From the IMG/VR virus record IMGVR_UViG_3300006224_000004: 44,994 nucleotides of DNA; one strand, written 5' to 3'. The position numbers were made by a program, and so were the translations under genes. Source of the DNA: a virus. The stretch's first letter is position 1, and the number at the start of each line of letters is the position of its first letter. Positions 1-42,963 of this stretch are shown in pieces. The notes under the pieces were generated by a model. The model did not search any database. It was not told the DNA's origin and worked only from the letters and a program-made list of their open reading frames with translations.

Positions 1-120
1 CGCTCAAGAAGCACGTCGCCTTCTCCGACCTAGCGGGGCCAAAATGAGTGCTGCGTCTCTCGCCGTCGCCATCTCCCTGACTGGCGTCATCTACTTCCTG
101 CTGGCTCTGTGCGTCATCGC
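1..120. repeat. Terminal direct repeat, identical to 44875-44994 (circularisation overlap)
   Basis: Read directly: cgctcaagaagcacgtcgcc...ctctgtgcgtcatcgc occurs at both ends with an offset of 44,874 nt. Confidence 0.97.
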
Positions 121-13615: not shown

Positions 13616-14077
13616 ATGGCTGTTACTGCTGCAATGTTTGGCACGTGGCCGGAGTTCATCCTCGGAGGTAACGCGACCGCTCCCACCACCGTCATCAACC
13701 TCCGGACGTCGAACGGATGCTCCGTCGCCCTCTACACCAACTCGTACTCTCCGTCGCAGGACACCCAGACGGCGTACAACAACACGAACGAGATCGCCAC
13801 GGGCAACAACTACACGCAGGGCGGCAACAACTTCACTTGCACGATCTCGACGCCGTCCAGCCGCGTCGTGACCGTCGACTCGGCGGCCGACCCGACCTGG
13901 GCGACCTCCGTCATCACGAACGCCCGCCGGGCGCTCGTCTACGACACCGACAACAGCACGGACCGGGTCATCTCCTGGGTCGACTTCGGGGCCGACGTCA
14001 GCTCGAACAACGGCGACTTCAAAATCACGTGGGCGGCGGGGGGCATCTTCACCATCACGGTTGCCGCGCTTGCGTAA
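13616..14077 (+). CDS. Hypothetical Asn/Thr/Ser-rich beta protein, probably a virion or fibre-associated protein
   Basis: 153 aa with SD AAAGGAG; located between the central fibre and the tailspike. Confidence 0.45.
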   Translation: MAVTAAMFGTWPEFILGGNATAPTTVINLRTSNGCSVALYTNSYSPSQDTQTAYNNTNEIATGNNYTQGGNNFTCTISTPSSRVVTVDSAADPTWATSVITNARRALVYDTDNSTDRVISWVDFGADVSSNNGDFKITWAAGGIFTITVAALA

Positions 14078-17388: not shown

Positions 17389-18087
17389 ATGCGTAAAACC
17401 ATTTACACACTCAACGTAAACAACTACGCGCCGGAAATCTGCGCGTTGACCTATCCGCTGCTGAAGCACCACGCGAAGCGGATCGGCGCCGAGTTCGTGG
17501 TCATCACGGGGCGGAAGTTCGACGGCTGGCCGGTCGTCTACGAGAAGCTCCAGATCAAGGAGCTGGCCGAGCAGCGCGGCGACGACTGGTCGATTTATAT
17601 CGACTCCGACGCGCTCGTCCATCCCGAGACGCCGGACTGGACGAACTTCCTGAAGCCGGACACCGTCGCGCACAACGGCATCGACATGGCCGCGATCCGC
17701 TGGCGCTACGACGCCTACTTCAAGCGCGACGGCCGGAACATCGGCTCCTGCAACTGGAACACCATCGCCTCGTCCTGGTGCCGCGACCTCTGGACGCCGC
17801 TTGACATCACGCTGGAGCAGGCCGTCGAGAACATCTACCCGACCGTCGACGAGCTCCTGACCGTCGTCGAGCGGTCGCACCTAATCGACGACTACACCCT
17901 CTCCCGCAACATCGCCCGGTTCGGGTTGAAGACGAAGTGCCTTCTGGATCTCCAGAAGGAAGTCGGGCTGGCATCGGGCGACTTCTACGACCACCTTTAC
18001 ACCCTACCGATCGACAAGAAGGTCGAGCACATGAAGGAAGTCCTCAAGCGGTGGCGGGTCGAGCAGTTCATGGAGCGGTGGAAATGA
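17389..18087 (+). CDS. Putative GT-A fold (DxD) glycosyltransferase
   Basis: 232 aa with a perfect SD (AGGAGG). WSIYIDSDALVHP is a DxD-type motif after a beta-strand, and the N-terminal IYTLNVNNYAPEI...RIGAEFVVI resembles GT8-like / nucleotide-diphospho-sugar transferases. Assignment rests on motifs only. Confidence 0.4.
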   Translation: MRKTIYTLNVNNYAPEICALTYPLLKHHAKRIGAEFVVITGRKFDGWPVVYEKLQIKELAEQRGDDWSIYIDSDALVHPETPDWTNFLKPDTVAHNGIDMAAIRWRYDAYFKRDGRNIGSCNWNTIASSWCRDLWTPLDITLEQAVENIYPTVDELLTVVERSHLIDDYTLSRNIARFGLKTKCLLDLQKEVGLASGDFYDHLYTLPIDKKVEHMKEVLKRWRVEQFMERWK

Positions 18088-18389
18088 GCGAGATCGAAGA
18101 CCTCAAGGCGCAGCTCGCCCTGCGCGACACCGAGATCGCCGGCCTGCGGCACGTTGTCGAGCTGCTCGAATGGGTCAAGGTCCGGAGCACCCGCGGCATG
18201 GACCCGATGCCCGACGCGATGCGGAGCAACAAGGACGCGGGCCGGACGAAGACGGAACAGGTCGTCTACGACCAGGTCATCAACGAGTCCTGGGTCTGCC
18301 CCGCCTGCGGGGCGATCCAGCCGAAGAAGCACCAACAGGGCTGCATGATCCATGCGGTCCTGACCAGCAAGCCGCAGCTCGGGCCATGA
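18084..18389 (+). CDS. Small coiled-coil plus Cys/His protein
   Basis: 101 aa with an ATGA overlap. N-terminal heptad-like EIEDLKAQLALRDTEIAGLRHVVELLEW; C-terminal CPACGAIQPKKHQQGCMIH. Confidence 0.45.
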   Translation: MSEIEDLKAQLALRDTEIAGLRHVVELLEWVKVRSTRGMDPMPDAMRSNKDAGRTKTEQVVYDQVINESWVCPACGAIQPKKHQQGCMIHAVLTSKPQLGP

Positions 18390-18399
18390 AGGGCTAGCC

Positions 18400-18633
18400 T
18401 TGGCCGCCTCGATCTCCTCCGCAGCCTACGCGGCGCTCCCGTGTCTGCGCTGCGACATTCTTGAGGAGGAGATCGAGAAGCTCCGGGGCCTAGTCCGCGA
18501 CATTCACTACGCGGGGCCGGTCGGAGACCTGTGCTTCCCGCAACACGGCTGCACGCCCGATCTGCGGTGGGAGTCTCACGCGGACGGGTGCCTGACGAAG
18601 CGCGTCGTCGGGGCTATCGGAGAGGGCGACTAG
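18400..18633 (+). CDS. Small Cys-rich protein (TTG start, uncertain)
   Basis: 77 aa: CLRCDILEEEIEKLRGLV ... CFPQHGC ... HADGCL. The only open frame in this gap, with good GC3. Confidence 0.35.
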   Translation: MAASISSAAYAALPCLRCDILEEEIEKLRGLVRDIHYAGPVGDLCFPQHGCTPDLRWESHADGCLTKRVVGAIGEGD

Positions 18634-18634
18634 C

Positions 18635-21600
18635 GTGGCGTATCCGACTGTTCAGACCGCCGACACCAAGTACGGCACCCAGACGTCGAACTCGACGTCG
18701 TGGACGCTGACCTACCCGACGAACCTCGCCAGCGGGGATCTGATTGTCGCGCTGATCGCTCTCGACGGAACTAGCTATACGACCACGTTTCCGGCGGGTT
18801 GGGTTTCGTCAGGCTTCGCCGGTACTGCGAACTCATTTGCCATATCTAAGAAGAAAAGTAACGGGACAGAAACCGGGGACTTCTCTGTCACCACGTCGAA
18901 CGAGCAAGGCGCGTGGCGGATATTCAGGATCACGGGATGGGAAGGCACGCTCGGAACGAATTGGGACAATACCGCGTCTAGTTCTGGCGCTGTTACCACC
19001 GGGGCGAATGTTACCGGCAGCCCCAGCACGACACCAGATCCGCCATCGCTCGACCCCTATAACTGGGCCACGGAGGACACGCTCTGGATCGCGGCGTGCA
19101 GCGTAGACACCAGCCGCACGATCTCGGGATATCCGAGTAACTGTCCCGACCTCAACATAGCAGACGTATCGGGCGGCTCGACCGGCGCAACGCTCGGGAC
19201 CGCGATGGCGAACAGCGCCAGCTCGTCATTCGATCCCGGCACGTTCACGATCTCCAACAGCGACGACTGGGTCGGTTTCACCATCGCCATCCGGCCCGCG
19301 GGCGGCAGCGGAACCACCCAGGCCGCCGTCGTCACGAACCAGAGTGCCGCCACGGTCGTCCCGACGGTCAAGGCTGGCGCGACCGTCGACGCGGTCGTCA
19401 CCAACGCCACCGGAGCAACGGTGGTGCCGGGTGCCGGCATCGCCGCGACGACGGAGGCTGTCGTCACCGATGCTGCCTGCGCGACGCCCGCCCCGACCGT
19501 CAGCGCGGGCGTCGGCATCTCGCCGCCGGTCATCTCGTCCATCGCCGCGACCGTCGCGGCGGCGATCATCGGCGGGGCGGTCACGCTCTCGGCTGTCCTG
19601 ACGAACGCGGCGGCGGCCACGCCCGCACCCGAGGCCACGGCGGGGGCTGGCGCGACGGCGGTCGTCACGAACGCGACGGCAGGCACCCTCGCGCCTTCGG
19701 TCCAAGGCAACGTCGTCCTCGGCGGTCTTACGGCAACGAACGCTTCGGCGGCTACTGTCGTCCCGACAGTCACCGCTGGAACCAGCGCTAACGTCACCGC
19801 TGTCGTTACGAACGCCGATGGCGCGACGATTGTCCCGACCTCTGTCACAGGGGACACCGGGACGACCCAGGCGGCGGTCGTCACCGACGCCGCCGGGGCC
19901 ACGGTTGCTCCAACTCTCGCGGCGGGAGCGACAGTCGCCGCGACCCTGACCAACGCCGACGGGGCCACGGTCGCCCCGTCCAGCGTCACCGGAGGATCGG
20001 TCGAGTCCTACACGGGCGAGCCGCCCACGACGAACGCCGACGCCGCGACAGTCTCTCCGACCGTCTCGGCAGGAGCGACCGTCACGACGGTCCTGACGGA
20101 CGCCGCTGGAGCCACCGCAGCTCCCGCCGTCAAGGCCGACACGGGCGTCACGGCGGTCGTAACGAACGCCGACGGGGCCACGGTCGTCCCGACGCTGGCC
20201 GCTGGCTCGACGGTGGACGCCGTCGTCACGGACGCGGCGGCCGCAACGATCCCACCCTCGAGCGTCACCGGACAGACGGTCGGCAGCTATAACGGTGCCC
20301 CGCCGGTCACGGACGCATCCGCCGCCACCGTCGCGCCTTCGGCCCAAGCCAACACGGTCATCGGCGGCCTGGCGGCCACGAACGCATCCGCCGCCACGGT
20401 CGTTCCCACCGCCTCGGCAGGGGCGACTGTTGCGGCCGTCGTCACGAACGCGACAGGGGCCACGGTTGTTCCGACCGTCTCGGCAGGGGCGACGGTTACG
20501 ACGGTTCTGACAGACGCCGCAGGAGCCACCGCGGTTCCGACCGCCAAGGGCGACACGGGCATCACGGCCGTTGTCACGAATGCGGACGGAGCCACCGTCG
20601 TCCCGACCGTCAGCGCCGGAACCGGCGGGAACGTCACCGCCGTCGTCACGAACGCGGACGGAGCGACCGCAGCGCCGACCGTATCGGCCACGAGCAATGT
20701 CGAAGTCGTCTCGACGAACGCGACCGGGGCGACGATCCCGCCGTTCAGCGTCGAGGGCCAAGTAGCCGGCGGCACCGAGCAATTCCCGCCGACCACGAAC
20801 GCATCCGGCGCAACCGCCGCTCCGTCGGCACAGGGGAACGTCGTTCTCGGTGGTCTGGCGGCGACAGATGCCGCAGCCGCCACACCGAATCCCTCCGTCA
20901 GCGCCGGGGCGAACGTCGACGCCGTCCTGACAGATGCCGCGGTCGCCACGCCCGCTCCGGCGGTCGAGGGCCAGGCAGCAGCCGGCACGGAACAGTTCCC
21001 GCCGGTCACGGACGCCGCGGCAGCGACCGTTGCGCCATCGGCCCAAGGGAACGTCGTCCTCAGTGGCCTGACGGCGACCAACGCGGATGCCGCCACGCCC
21101 GCCCCGGCGGTCGAGGGCGGTGTCGCGTTGAGCGGCGAGGTCACGGCCACGGTGGCGACCGCCACCGCCGGGACCGTCGTCGAGGATGGCGGCGAAGTCA
21201 CCGCCGGCGCGACGGTCACGACCGAGAGCGTACCGGACAGTGCGGGCGCGACGTCGGCACCGACCCTGTCCTCGGCAGCGGATGTCACGGCCACCGTAAC
21301 GAACGCCGACGCGGCCACTCCCGCGCCGGCAGCGTCAAGCGCGGCGAACGTCACCGCCGTCCCGACCGACGCCGCAGTCGCCACGCCGGTCCCCACCGTC
21401 GAGGGGCAGGCGGCCGAGGGCGTCGAGGTCGTGGCGGTCGTTACGAACGCCGACGCGGCCACCATCGCGCCGACGAGCATCGCGGGTGCCGCGGGCATCA
21501 CTGCCGTCGTCACGAACGCCCAAGCGGCCACGGTCACACCCTCGAGCGTCAGCACGGGCGCGAACGTCACCACGGTCGCCACGAACGCCCAGGCGGCCAC

Positions 21601-22273
21601 ACCGGCACCGGCCGTATCCGGGGCGGCGGACGTCACCGCCGTGGCCACAGGGGCCGACGTCGCAACGCCTGCGCCCGCCGTACAGGCCGCCGGGTTCGGG
21701 CAGGTCATCGCGGCCACCGCCGGCGCGACGGGGGCAACCGCGGCACCGACCCTGTCGGCCGGCGTCAACGTGACGGCCACGCTGGCTACCGCGACGACGG
21801 CCACGCTGGCCCCGGTCATCGGCGAGGGGAATACGGTCGCGGCGGTCGTCACCGGCGCAACGGCGGCGACGCCGGTCCCGAGCGTCGCCTACGGCTGGAC
21901 GGTCGCCGGAGTCGGCACCGGGGCATCGGCGGCCACGCCAGCTCCGGCCGTCTCCTACGGGTGGACGGTCGGCGCGGTCGTCTGCGGAGCAACGGGTGCC
22001 ACATGGGGTCCGGCCTTCGGCGGCGGGAAGACCAGCTACGCTGTCGTCGCCACGGCGGACGCGGCCACGCCGGCTCCGGAGGTCACGGTCGGCGGGTCGG
22101 TCCTCGCCACCACGGCCAGCGCGCTCTGCGAGACGAAGCACGCCACGTTCCACATCGACGTCATGTACCCGGGCGCGTGGGCGTCGGTCAGGCCGGTGAC
22201 GTGGAGCTCCGTCACCAAGATCACCCACTCGGCGACGATCACCAGCGAAACGACGGCAGGAGGGATCTCGTGA
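18635..22273 (+). CDS. Giant hyper-repetitive fibre-like protein (N-terminal globular domain plus about 38 copies of a 22-residue repeat)
   Basis: 1212 aa, GTG start with SD GGAGAGGG. The frame is kept open across about 2.8 kb of degenerate 66-nt repeats, and the non-repetitive N- and C-termini are protein-like. Confidence 0.8.
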   Translation: MAYPTVQTADTKYGTQTSNSTSWTLTYPTNLASGDLIVALIALDGTSYTTTFPAGWVSSGFAGTANSFAISKKKSNGTETGDFSVTTSNEQGAWRIFRITGWEGTLGTNWDNTASSSGAVTTGANVTGSPSTTPDPPSLDPYNWATEDTLWIAACSVDTSRTISGYPSNCPDLNIADVSGGSTGATLGTAMANSASSSFDPGTFTISNSDDWVGFTIAIRPAGGSGTTQAAVVTNQSAATVVPTVKAGATVDAVVTNATGATVVPGAGIAATTEAVVTDAACATPAPTVSAGVGISPPVISSIAATVAAAIIGGAVTLSAVLTNAAAATPAPEATAGAGATAVVTNATAGTLAPSVQGNVVLGGLTATNASAATVVPTVTAGTSANVTAVVTNADGATIVPTSVTGDTGTTQAAVVTDAAGATVAPTLAAGATVAATLTNADGATVAPSSVTGGSVESYTGEPPTTNADAATVSPTVSAGATVTTVLTDAAGATAAPAVKADTGVTAVVTNADGATVVPTLAAGSTVDAVVTDAAAATIPPSSVTGQTVGSYNGAPPVTDASAATVAPSAQANTVIGGLAATNASAATVVPTASAGATVAAVVTNATGATVVPTVSAGATVTTVLTDAAGATAVPTAKGDTGITAVVTNADGATVVPTVSAGTGGNVTAVVTNADGATAAPTVSATSNVEVVSTNATGATIPPFSVEGQVAGGTEQFPPTTNASGATAAPSAQGNVVLGGLAATDAAAATPNPSVSAGANVDAVLTDAAVATPAPAVEGQAAAGTEQFPPVTDAAAATVAPSAQGNVVLSGLTATNADAATPAPAVEGGVALSGEVTATVATATAGTVVEDGGEVTAGATVTTESVPDSAGATSAPTLSSAADVTATVTNADAATPAPAASSAANVTAVPTDAAVATPVPTVEGQAAEGVEVVAVVTNADAATIAPTSIAGAAGITAVVTNAQAATVTPSSVSTGANVTTVATNAQAATPAPAVSGAADVTAVATGADVATPAPAVQAAGFGQVIAATAGATGATAAPTLSAGVNVTATLATATTATLAPVIGEGNTVAAVVTGATAATPVPSVAYGWTVAGVGTGASAATPAPAVSYGWTVGAVVCGATGATWGPAFGGGKTSYAVVATADAATPAPEVTVGGSVLATTASALCETKHATFHIDVMYPGAWASVRPVTWSSVTKITHSATITSETTAGGIS
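19320..22100 (+). repeat. Degenerate tandem array, 66-nt (22-codon) period, inside CDS 18635..22273
   Basis: I hand-counted about 38 copies of the core T-(N/D)-A-x-x-A-T-x-x-P. DNA strings such as gtcgtcacgaacgccgacggggccacggtcgtcccgac recur. Confidence 0.85.
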
Positions 22274-22641
22274 ATCAGGAACGGCTCGAGATGATCCGTG
22301 GCGACAATCAGCAGTTCACGATCGCCGCCCAGGTGACGGCCGGCGGCGTGACGACGATCCCCGACATCTCGTCATGGACGATCTGGATGACCGGCAAGCT
22401 CGACAAGGCCGACTCCGATGCGGAGGCCCTGTTCCAGATCAAGACGCCGACCGAGATCGAGATTACGGACGGAGCCGGCGGCATCGCCGTGGCGACCCTG
22501 CCGACGACGGCAACGTCCAGCTTGACGGGCACCACCGTCGTCTACTTCGACGTGCAGGGGAAGGAAGGCGGCGGCGCGATCCATACGCTCGCCATCGGGA
22601 CGATCAAGGTGCTGGTGGACGTGACGGTGGATACGACGTAG
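22270..22641 (+). CDS. Small beta-sandwich-like protein (possible fibre accessory or Ig-like protein)
   Basis: 123 aa from a GTG overlapping the upstream TGA (alternative ATG at 22291). The pattern IRGDNQQFTI...ISSWTIWMTGK...VYFDVQ...GTIKVLVDVT is typical of small phage beta-sandwich proteins. Confidence 0.45.
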   Translation: MNQERLEMIRGDNQQFTIAAQVTAGGVTTIPDISSWTIWMTGKLDKADSDAEALFQIKTPTEIEITDGAGGIAVATLPTTATSSLTGTTVVYFDVQGKEGGGAIHTLAIGTIKVLVDVTVDTT

Positions 22642-34759: not shown

Positions 34760-34925
34760 ACGACTGGTCTCGGATGACTGGTCTCGACTGGTCTTGACTG
34801 GTCTTGGCACCAGTCTCGAAAATGCAAGACTTAACTGGTCTCGACTGGTCTCGACCGGTCTAGATAAGAGACCGGTCGGACCAAGACCAGTCGAGACGCC
34901 CACCGGTATCAGTGACCGGTCTCGG
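34760..34925. repeat. Iteron array, putative origin of replication
   Basis: (G)ACTGGTCT(C/T)G occurs at 34762, 34777, 34787, 34798, 34833 and 34844. Variants ACCGGTCTAG (34854) and GACCGGTCTCG (34914) follow. Inverted copies lie at 34810-16, 34867-76 and 34881-97. Adjacent copies are 10-11 bp apart. Confidence 0.7.
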
Positions 34926-42327: not shown

Positions 42328-42963
42328 ATGCAAATTCGTTCTCCCGACAAGATCATCGGGGCCGTGCTGCTCCTCGGGATGTTCATCCTCCTGATGAACG
42401 TCCCCACGAGCCACGCGCCGGCCGACACGACGACGGTGACGCTGATGTCGGCGCAGACCACCACCGGGCTCGGCAAGGCCAGCGTCGGCACCCTCGGGAC
42501 GCCGGCGCCGGGCGGCGGGGACCACTTCACCTTCCAATTCACCGGCGTCGGTACGGCGACGGCCCGCATCGAGCTGTCGAACGACGGGACCAACTGGGCG
42601 CCCGTCTACACGTTCAAGGCGATCTCCGACTTCTACCAGGCGCCCGTCTGCGGCGCGTGCCTGTACCGCGCCTACGCGATCATCGCCGACGCGACGAACA
42701 CCGTGACCATCACGGCGACGCTCGGCGGCGCGGCGATGTTCAACGCGCCGACCTACACGCCGACGAACACGCCGACGACGACGCCGACGCCGACCCGGAC
42801 GCCGACGGTGACGCCGAGCAACACGCCGACACGGACGCCGACCGTCACGCAGACGCCGACGGCCCGCCCGACGTGGACCCCGACGCCGGCCGTTCCGCCG
42901 GGCTTCCCGACGGCAACGCCGACGCCCACCGCGACACGCACTCCGACCGTGACGCCAACCTGA
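42328..42963 (+). CDS. Signal-peptide protein with a beta domain and a C-terminal Pro/Thr repeat tail
   Basis: 211 aa with SD GTGAGGAGGG. N-terminal signal or anchor MQIRSPDKIIGAVLLLGMFILLMNVPTSHA. The C-terminal 70 aa are (T-P-T)n: TYTPTNTPTTTPTPTRTPTVTPSNTPTRTPTVTQTPT... Confidence 0.6.
   Translation: MQIRSPDKIIGAVLLLGMFILLMNVPTSHAPADTTTVTLMSAQTTTGLGKASVGTLGTPAPGGGDHFTFQFTGVGTATARIELSNDGTNWAPVYTFKAISDFYQAPVCGACLYRAYAIIADATNTVTITATLGGAAMFNAPTYTPTNTPTTTPTPTRTPTVTPSNTPTRTPTVTQTPTARPTWTPTPAVPPGFPTATPTPTATRTPTVTPT
42748..42960 (+). repeat. Pro/Thr (TPT) low-complexity coding repeat
   Basis: acgccgac-type units repeat across the last 71 codons of CDS 42328..42963. Confidence 0.8.

Follow-up and report, generated by a model that had tools for sequence, protein, structure and literature searches.

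Introduction

The majority of phage fibres are trimeric and run from an N-terminal anchor through a repetitive shaft to a C-terminal knob or folding domain. Right-handed parallel β-helices have ~22 residues per coil and Asn ladders, and tailspikes are phage adhesins. Receptor-binding fibres decide the host range of phages, and few of those from uncultured soil and aquatic phages are annotated. Here, we analysed the IMG/VR virus record IMGVR_UViG_3300006224_000004 (44,994 nt; this whole stretch is referred to below as the window), in which an open reading frame (ORF) of 1212 aa (18635–22273, + strand, GTG start) encodes a protein composed largely of a 22-residue Ala/Val/Thr repeat. An earlier reading of the sequence alone, here called the original prediction, had proposed that this was an ultra-regular β-solenoid fibre of no recognised family. 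Our analysis confirmed that this is a 22-residue repeat protein and placed its first 225 residues (the N-domain) in a large phage-specific family. On balance, we favour the view that the gene encodes a late-expressed virion fibre, either a minor tail or a side-fibre protein, of a temperate siphophage whose circular genome (~44.9 kb) is complete.

Results

The 1212-aa protein carries about 40 diverged 22-residue units

The three-part anatomy put forward in the original prediction was borne out. The N-domain (aa 1–225; 18635..19309), modelled as an all-β sandwich and a putative virion-anchoring head on the basis of its predicted structure and profile family, is followed by a tandem 22-residue array (aa 231–1154; 19325..22096) that is a putative β-rich shaft, and by a non-repetitive C-terminal tail of 58 residues (aa 1155–1212; 22097..22273 including the stop codon), all on the + strand. 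The tail is a candidate distal tip or folding nucleus; it is free of repeats, is the one part of the protein beyond the N-domain where aromatic, His and Met residues cluster, and has no homolog in the loci we fetched or in the protein database. The start codon could be fixed because the N-terminus MAYPTVQ matches the N-termini of homologs (MAFPTV/MAFPVV) residue for residue.

Periodicity was evident at the protein level, since the lag-22 self-identity of the repeat region was 0.292 compared with 0.149 ± 0.011 in shuffled sequences (z = 12.7), with harmonics (lags 44 and 66) and peaks of higher order (lags 71–72 and 94). A hidden Markov model (HMM) seeded with 13 canonical, exactly spaced units recovered 38 units between aa 231 and 1154, about the number that had previously been counted by hand. 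The start-to-start spacing was 22 residues in 11 cases and 23 in eight, and otherwise 20–30, apart from two gaps of 45 and 48 residues. These gaps conceal degenerate units, and we therefore put the total at ~40. The consensus is A-V-V-T-(N/D)-A-x-(G/A)-A-T-(V/P)-(V/A)-P-T-V-S-A-G-A-x-V-T, of which the first 13 residues (A-V-V-T-(N/D)-A-x-x-A-T-x-x-P) are fixed in length, while length varies only in the second half. Among 24 hand-picked well-formed units, A9, T10 and P13 were invariant and T4 and A6 were at least 90% conserved; P13 was present in 26 of the 38 HMM units. Position 5 is mainly N or D and turns to G in the final units.

The composition and higher-order structure also agreed with the original prediction. 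The residues A, V, T, G, S, P, N and D together account for 90.2% of the array (Thr plus Ser, ~24%), and the block APSxQGNVVLGGLxATxA occurs four times (aa 353, 567, 729 and 800), as does the motif PP[TV]T[ND]A. The array gave no lag-3 signal of a collagen-like Gly-X-Y repeat, and its Gly residues (10%) sit at fixed positions of the unit. The description 'ultra-regular' proved to be an overstatement, as unit length ranges from 20 to 27 and three stretches (~aa 296–319, 830–867 and 1048–1069) are irregular.

The units are diverged from one another at the DNA level, with a mean identity of 59% and a maximum of 85%, and long exact repeats are absent. Tandem Repeats Finder did report the expected 66-nt period, in just two short arrays; it reports little because the units are too diverged. 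Between units, synonymous divergence (pS, 0.59) exceeded non-synonymous divergence (pN, 0.33), and the GC content at third codon positions (GC3) was 0.84. These values are in line with the earlier proposal that selection acts on the protein, as opposed to recent slippage. The window is matched by two ENA contigs of 29 kb and 16.6 kb, which come from other assemblies, with no mismatch over 20.4 kb and 16.5 kb, respectively, the array included. Three assemblies thus give the same DNA, and collapse during assembly is unlikely. The divergence of the units and the excess of pS over pN indicate that the units are old, and recent slippage and a non-coding origin of the array are likewise unlikely.

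The N-domain belongs to a large unnamed phage family

In a search of 5.8 billion proteins, 13 homologs of the 1212-aa protein were found, all aligned over aa 1–225 only (30–63% identity). With the alignment of these 13 sequences, AlphaFold2 (AF2) produced an all-β model of the N-domain (predicted local distance difference test [pLDDT] 89.1; predicted template modelling score [pTM] 0.89). Among 1.84 billion representatives, an exhaustive search with a profile of the domain matched 12,470 clusters at E ≤ 1e-3, of which 1,953 reached E ≤ 1e-30. The conserved motifs of the family (SNSTSWT, GDL, DG, GW, SEQGAWR, PDPPSLDP..W.TEDTLW, DPGTFTIS and IAIRP) are borne by the 1212-aa protein. Family members lie on phage-like contigs binned with many phyla and on 53 IMG/VR contigs. 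Of 153 representatives, 114 have the start of the domain among their first 40 aa; in the 1212-aa protein it starts at residue 1. No model in Pfam, PHROGs or NCBIfam matches it (0 Pfam families at E ≤ 0.1 for the whole 1212-aa protein), and a Foldseek search of the N-domain model against the PDB gave no analogue (best E = 0.013; TM-scores all ≤ 0.36). The N-domain is a conserved, informative module of a large phage-specific family that is unnamed in Pfam, PHROGs and NCBIfam, and the simplest reading is that it is a virion-docking head domain.

In BFVD, Foldseek matched the N-domain to 63 predicted proteins at E ≤ 1e-3 with TM-scores of up to 0.77. Most are uncharacterised, but they include the 'minor tail protein' of the Mycobacterium phages Tonenili, Tweety, DroogsArmy and MooMoo, and some are named for a glycerophosphodiesterase (GDPD) or a CenC carbohydrate-binding domain. 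Two partial copies of the N-domain (31 and 20 bits) are present in gp26 of Rhodococcus phage Madraxi, a large 'minor tail protein' encoded right after the tape measure.

Two features of the wider family concern its gene neighbourhoods. In two of the fetched loci (L001, 3577–3969; L009, 7588–8004), PF23140 Gp80 (podophage GP4 fibre I, which matches PDB 8JOU) is encoded upstream of the N-domain gene, two to three genes away, a hint that some members of the family could be components of neck or collar fibre sets. A link between GP4 fibre I and the window itself was rejected, as the window holds no Gp80 homolog and BLASTP showed no relationship between Gp80 and the phrog_644 gene of the window. 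Separately, 12 other loci (L001, L006, L007, L080 and eight more) have clusters of genes for glycosyltransferases, epimerases/dehydratases and nucleotidyl-transferases within 10 kb of the N-domain gene, especially near the closest relatives of the N-domain of the window, including its closest homolog, P0001.

Private repeat arrays recur behind the N-domain

The earlier claim that the protein belongs to no recognised family stood, as neither the 1212-aa protein nor its repeats matched a family in Pfam, PHROGs, NCBIfam or the PDB sequences. Searching 50,697 phage records by tblastn with the whole protein and with the N-domain gave nothing at E ≤ 0.01, phmmer found no match to the whole protein among PDB sequences, and a double-unit profile of the repeat matched none of the 5.8 billion proteins. 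One apparent match of the repeat profile to a DARPin in the PDB was an artefact of summed weak repeats. A search of related phage genomes for the 22-mer had been suggested with the original prediction; neither the fetched loci nor the protein database contained a match, and the 22-mer is private to this protein.

Arrays as such are common in the family. The 13 homologs each carry an unrelated array of their own, with a period of 14, 18, 20, 21 or 22, and unrelated private arrays are likewise found across the 77 fetched N-domain loci. Among representatives with at least 150 aa past the N-domain, 48 of 76 (63%) carry a tandem array, compared with 1 of 76 shuffled controls. The base periods of these 48 arrays were 14 (4 arrays), 16 (3), 18 (6), 20 (12), 21 (7), 22 (13) and 23, 25 and 28 (1 each), with a peak at 20–22. 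The sole protein found that may share the 22-mer type is P0013 (904 aa, Logan assembly SRR22868768). Judged by eye only, its consensus, tVtAVaATaTAaalAPtv.aG, corresponds in length and skeleton to the VtAVvTnA.aATvaPtvsaG of the 1212-aa protein, and P0013 also bears N-domain copies. In contrast, P0013 is without the N/D position and was missed by both the 22-mer repeat HMM and the double-unit profile; its N-domain is duplicated and only ~30% identical, and a GH16 gene lies upstream. We found no description in the literature of this architecture of a head followed by a short-repeat array. We conclude that the 22-mer shaft is one instance of a recurrent design, a conserved head followed by a lineage-specific short-repeat array that is found in many uncultured phages, and not a one-off.

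Two folds are compatible with the array

Since the array has no homologs, AF2 was run on aa 221–1212 as a single sequence without an alignment, and the result (mean pLDDT 37, pTM 0.29) was uninformative. The best part of the model, residues 350–480 (~aa 570–700), reached a pLDDT of 50–64 and showed a strand of 7–8 residues plus short strands every 22 residues. Foldseek returned nothing significant for the array model (best E = 0.44); the non-significant list for this low-confidence model was dominated by β-helix proteins. PF13229 (Beta_helix) does not match the 1212-aa protein. On a charge-hydropathy plot, the array falls on the ordered side (mean hydropathy 0.565 versus a boundary of 0.431) and 35% of its residues are β-branched, while the Pro-Thr linkers encoded by the same phage fall on the disordered side. 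From these properties, the array is probably a folded β-rich shaft.

A trimeric intertwined β-fibre and a monomeric β-helix are equally compatible with the data. In the second, the array would be a right-handed parallel β-helix (β-solenoid) with one unit per coil, an Asn/Asp ladder and a corner Pro, and would form a rod of ~18–19 nm. This model is tentative. Its period equals the coil length of pectate-lyase-type β-helices, and insertions fall only in the second half of the unit, behind a constant 13-residue core, as loops would; the better-modelled stretch with strands every 22 residues and the β-helix proteins among the non-significant structural neighbours point the same way. Against it are the low pLDDT and pTM of the array as a whole, the lack of any Foldseek E-value better than 0.4 or of a Beta_helix match, an inferred core of almost only Ala and Val that is small for a three-sided 22-residue coil, and the replacement of N/D by G at position 5 in the final units. 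AlphaFold is also known to over-predict solenoids for repeats, and caution would therefore be needed even with a confident model. A homotrimeric intertwined fibre of the triple β-helix or β-spiral type, in which the 58-aa C-terminus would be the trimerisation or folding nucleus, is likewise possible but short of probable. The three-part anatomy of the protein matches that of the usual trimeric phage fibre, with N-terminal anchor, repetitive shaft and C-terminal domain; the repeats are like those of shafts in their short period, their conserved Pro/Gly and their alternation of small hydrophobic residues, and modelling of the monomer failed, as it often does for obligate trimers. Yet the sequence is similar to no solved fibre, and the period of 22 differs from the 15 of the triple β-spiral and the 8 of the T4 gp5 needle.

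A conserved upstream gene marks a swappable fibre slot

A conserved 232-aa gene, g232 (17389..18087, + strand), lies 548 nt upstream of the 1212-aa ORF, from which it is separated by two small ORFs for Cys-rich, zinc-ribbon-like proteins of 101 and 77 aa (18084..18633, + strand). The g232 family comprises at least 1,502 clusters, with 58–81% identity among the top matches, and g232 matches no model in Pfam, PHROGs or NCBIfam and nothing in the PDB. Two residues, D72 and D74, are invariant and form a D-x-D motif. Sub-threshold matches to Glyco_transf_21 were seen in 4 of 22 members (best E 0.028) and to Glyco_tranf_2_3 in 1 of 22. These are weak hints that g232 might be a GT-A glycosyltransferase (GT) and thereby a candidate fibre-modifying enzyme. 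A Kelch-like match of g232 was an artefact of repeated weak matches.

Comparison with sister phages showed that different proteins follow g232. In a sister contig with a g232 that is 81% identical and a nearly unchanged 101-aa ORF, the next gene encodes a different protein with a glycine-rich head, and two more contigs have g232 followed by a glycine-rich-head protein, one of them with C-terminal repeats of ~21 aa. The 101-aa Cys-rich protein differs at few residues, by eye, in sister contig L081 (3591–3896), where the fibre slot differs. A near-identical 101-aa ORF beside a different fibre gene suggests a recombination boundary at the fibre gene. We surveyed large ORFs within 2.5 kb of g232 homologs in 80 IMG/VR loci. 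A large tandem-array ORF was found downstream of g232 in 26 of 67 loci, compared with 3 of 71 upstream; counted by ORF, arrays were present in 31 of 116 downstream and 3 of 129 upstream (Fisher P = 1.2e-8). The base periods of these g232-linked arrays are mainly 20–23. Five of their heads were tested and all were PF21722 Gly_rich_2 (46–61 bits; cutoff 24.3), assigned to PHROG tail categories, and most of the other g232-linked array proteins have the same glycine-rich N-terminal motif, by eye. As sister contigs hold other array proteins downstream of g232, the 1212-aa protein occupies a swappable fibre slot.

The glycine-rich head motif is found in no frame of the window. We rejected the view of the N-domain as a Gly_rich_2 relative that is poor in glycine, since hhalign gave a probability of 0.08% between the two profiles (A1 versus A5). 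In two IMG/VR loci (L134 and L138), a g232 homolog is followed by a protein of ~1,436 aa with an internal N-domain that starts at residue 764, which provides another case, besides the window, of a link between g232 and the N-domain family.

The 1212-aa ORF is the last large gene of the tail module

The two ends of the window (1–120 and 44875–44994) overlap exactly over 120 nt, and the window is therefore a complete circular assembly. It is the complete, circular genome of a temperate siphophage of ~44.9 kb, in which we found no tRNA. The terminase, portal, protease and capsid genes are at 35.7–42.3 kb. A phrog_290 'minor tail protein' gene (3219) occupies the tail-tube-gene position beside the neck protein gene. 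A 1257-aa gene is tape-measure-sized, an assignment by position and size only, and its own PHROG match has unknown function. It is followed by a gene for a J-like central fibre (phrog_31 and phrog_5616 matches) and by more tail genes, including a phrog_553 minor tail protein. Next in order are g232, the two Cys-rich ORFs, the 1212-aa ORF, a 123-aa gene (22270..22641, + strand; phrog_1084, unknown function), the integrase on the opposite strand and the early genes. The nearest cultured phages are very distant Roseobacter phages, which share 25–30% identity with part of the J-like protein only.

The 1212-aa ORF thus holds the place it had been given, as the last large gene of the tail-fibre locus, and appears coupled to its neighbours in translation. 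This coupling is indicated by its junctions, TAG-n-GTG upstream and an overlapping GTGA downstream, where the start of the 123-aa gene overlaps the stop of the 1212-aa ORF, both with Shine-Dalgarno-like sequences. Judged from the sequence, the N-terminus of the protein is free of a signal peptide and of a transmembrane segment. The tail genes of the window and the 123-aa gene do not recur beside N-domain family genes in the fetched loci, except for phrog_644 in a few. The phrog_644 gene of the window (13616–14077, tail module, unknown function) has counterparts directly upstream of N-domain genes in two unrelated loci (L008, 3662–4054; L055, 7620–7985), and its product is a possible docking partner or adaptor of N-domain proteins.

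Two other regions of the genome are worth recording. The intergenic stretch 34760–34880, just upstream of the packaging genes, contains at least six direct 10-nt units (GACTGGTCTC/T) together with inverted copies, and might represent iterons, a pac site or an array to which a regulator binds. Immediately behind the major capsid gene, two ORFs (42328–42963 and ~43970–44347) have signal-peptide-like N-termini and long Pro-Thr linkers (TPTNTPTTTPTPTRTPT...); their predicted products are secreted or lipoprotein-like, which would be unusual within a head module.

Discussion

A virion fibre is the favoured role of the 1212-aa protein

The reading of the 1212-aa protein as a virion fibre is supported indirectly but consistently. 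The fibre or adhesin role that the original prediction assigned to it fits the family evidence, namely the matches to 'minor tail proteins' and the g232-linked fibre slot. Several points weigh against this reading. The BFVD matches that have names reach only moderate TM-scores of 0.49–0.58, and the GenBank name 'minor tail protein' comes from annotation rather than experiment. In several loci (L001, L002 and L008), the N-domain gene lies between the capsid and head–tail genes; some phages might therefore anchor the protein at the neck, collar or head. The presence of the 1212-aa protein in virions is itself putative, drawn from context and family, and the folded β shaft is proposed from composition and periodicity against an AF2 pLDDT of 37 for the array.

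A different role for the shaft would follow if the array were a flexible, heavily O-glycosylated, mucin-like stalk or 'hair', modified by g232 and acting as a glycan shield or in adhesion to the environment rather than as a rigid receptor-binding rod. The Thr and Ser content, the invariant D-x-D and sub-threshold GT matches of g232, its linkage to repeat proteins downstream and the GT or epimerase genes near N-domain genes, including that of P0001, would all suit such a stalk, and virion glycosylation has been documented in mycobacteriophages (Freeman et al. 2023, as cited in PMC11256854). That g232 glycosylates the Thr/Ser-rich shaft is a hypothesis. We regard the mucin-like stalk as improbable, because no GT family or structure matches g232 significantly and the gene is absent from the other fetched N-domain loci, and because the array is hydrophobic and ordered by the charge-hydropathy criterion, unlike the Pro-Thr linkers of the same phage, with a strict periodicity and conserved Val/Ala positions that favour a folded unit. 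Far less credible still is that the protein is a moron, a lysogenic-conversion product at the prophage end with a cell-surface or superinfection-exclusion function, and not a virion component. The last large gene before the integrase is the classic position of a moron, and N-domain family genes have varied positions in other phages. Yet the N-terminus has neither a signal peptide nor a transmembrane segment, the gene shares its strand with the tail genes and is translationally coupled to them, annotated tail proteins contain the N-domain, and the slot holds tail-category Gly_rich_2 proteins in sister phages.

For the favoured virion fibre, we propose the following sequence of events. The N-domain would dock the protein onto the tail tip through a putative partner, and the ~40 β-rich 22-mers would stack into a long, thin, acidic, Thr-rich shaft. 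This shaft and the 58-aa C-terminal tip could then reach out to make a reversible first contact with a repetitive polymer on the host surface. Swapping of the cassette and diversification of its repeats might retune host range.

A wider pattern of interchangeable heads and short-repeat arrays

Phage fibres with a repetitive shaft are already known as a kind; what is new here is the N-domain family and the private repeat. The unnamed head domain spans over 12,000 clusters, its fold is predicted with confidence, and it is without a Pfam, PHROG or PDB counterpart. Also identified were the recurrent design of a conserved head followed by a lineage-specific array of 14–24-residue units, which is common to the Gly_rich_2 proteins, and the conserved partner gene g232 that travels with such fibres. 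This wider pattern of interchangeable heads, 14–24-aa arrays and a partner gene may be of more interest than the 1212-aa protein alone. A bolder extension, which we consider unlikely as a whole, is that arrays of 14–24 aa behind interchangeable heads (N-domain or Gly_rich_2) form an unrecognised, widespread class of fibre shaft with a new fold, modified (e.g. glycosylated) by a dedicated 232-aa enzyme, the 22-mer being one extreme example. If a new shaft fold or an enzymatic modification were true, it would provide annotation rules for thousands of metagenomic phage proteins and a tunable modular scaffold for engineering the length and specificity of fibres. The 22-mer protein is a good target for expression and structure determination, with units diverged enough for cloning and sequencing.

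Comparison with known systems

The actinophage 'minor tail proteins', Madraxi gp26 and the modelled proteins of Tonenili, Tweety, DroogsArmy and MooMoo, share the β-sandwich domain, by profile score in gp26 and by structural similarity in the others, and its setting in the tail module. They are without the 22-mer array, and in gp26 the domain is internal and partial. Right-handed parallel β-helices such as pectate lyase and the P22 tailspike have ~22 residues per coil and Asn ladders; the array has a period of 22 residues and a frequent N/D at position 5, but it has much smaller side chains, no PbH1 signature, no HMM match and no confident model. The shafts of the adenovirus fibre, reovirus sigma1 and T4 gp5 and gp12 resemble the 1212-aa protein in having an N-terminal anchor, a short-period Pro/Gly shaft with alternating hydrophobic residues and a C-terminal domain, whereas the periods of triple β-spiral and triple β-helix shafts are 15 or 8, compared with 22–23 here, and there is no similarity in sequence. 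Ice-binding, antifreeze and ice-nucleation proteins with Thr/Ala-rich β-solenoids are also Ala/Thr/Gly-rich with T-x-T-like motifs and appear among the non-significant Foldseek neighbours; their periods are 12–19 aa, no match to them was significant, and the array here sits in a phage-tail context. Finally, the Gly_rich_2 proteins (PF21722; phrog_863 and phrog_356, tail category) have an unrelated head domain and unrelated repeat sequences, but they occupy the same slot downstream of the g232 family and share the same layout, a head of ~225 aa followed by a long array of 18–28-aa units.

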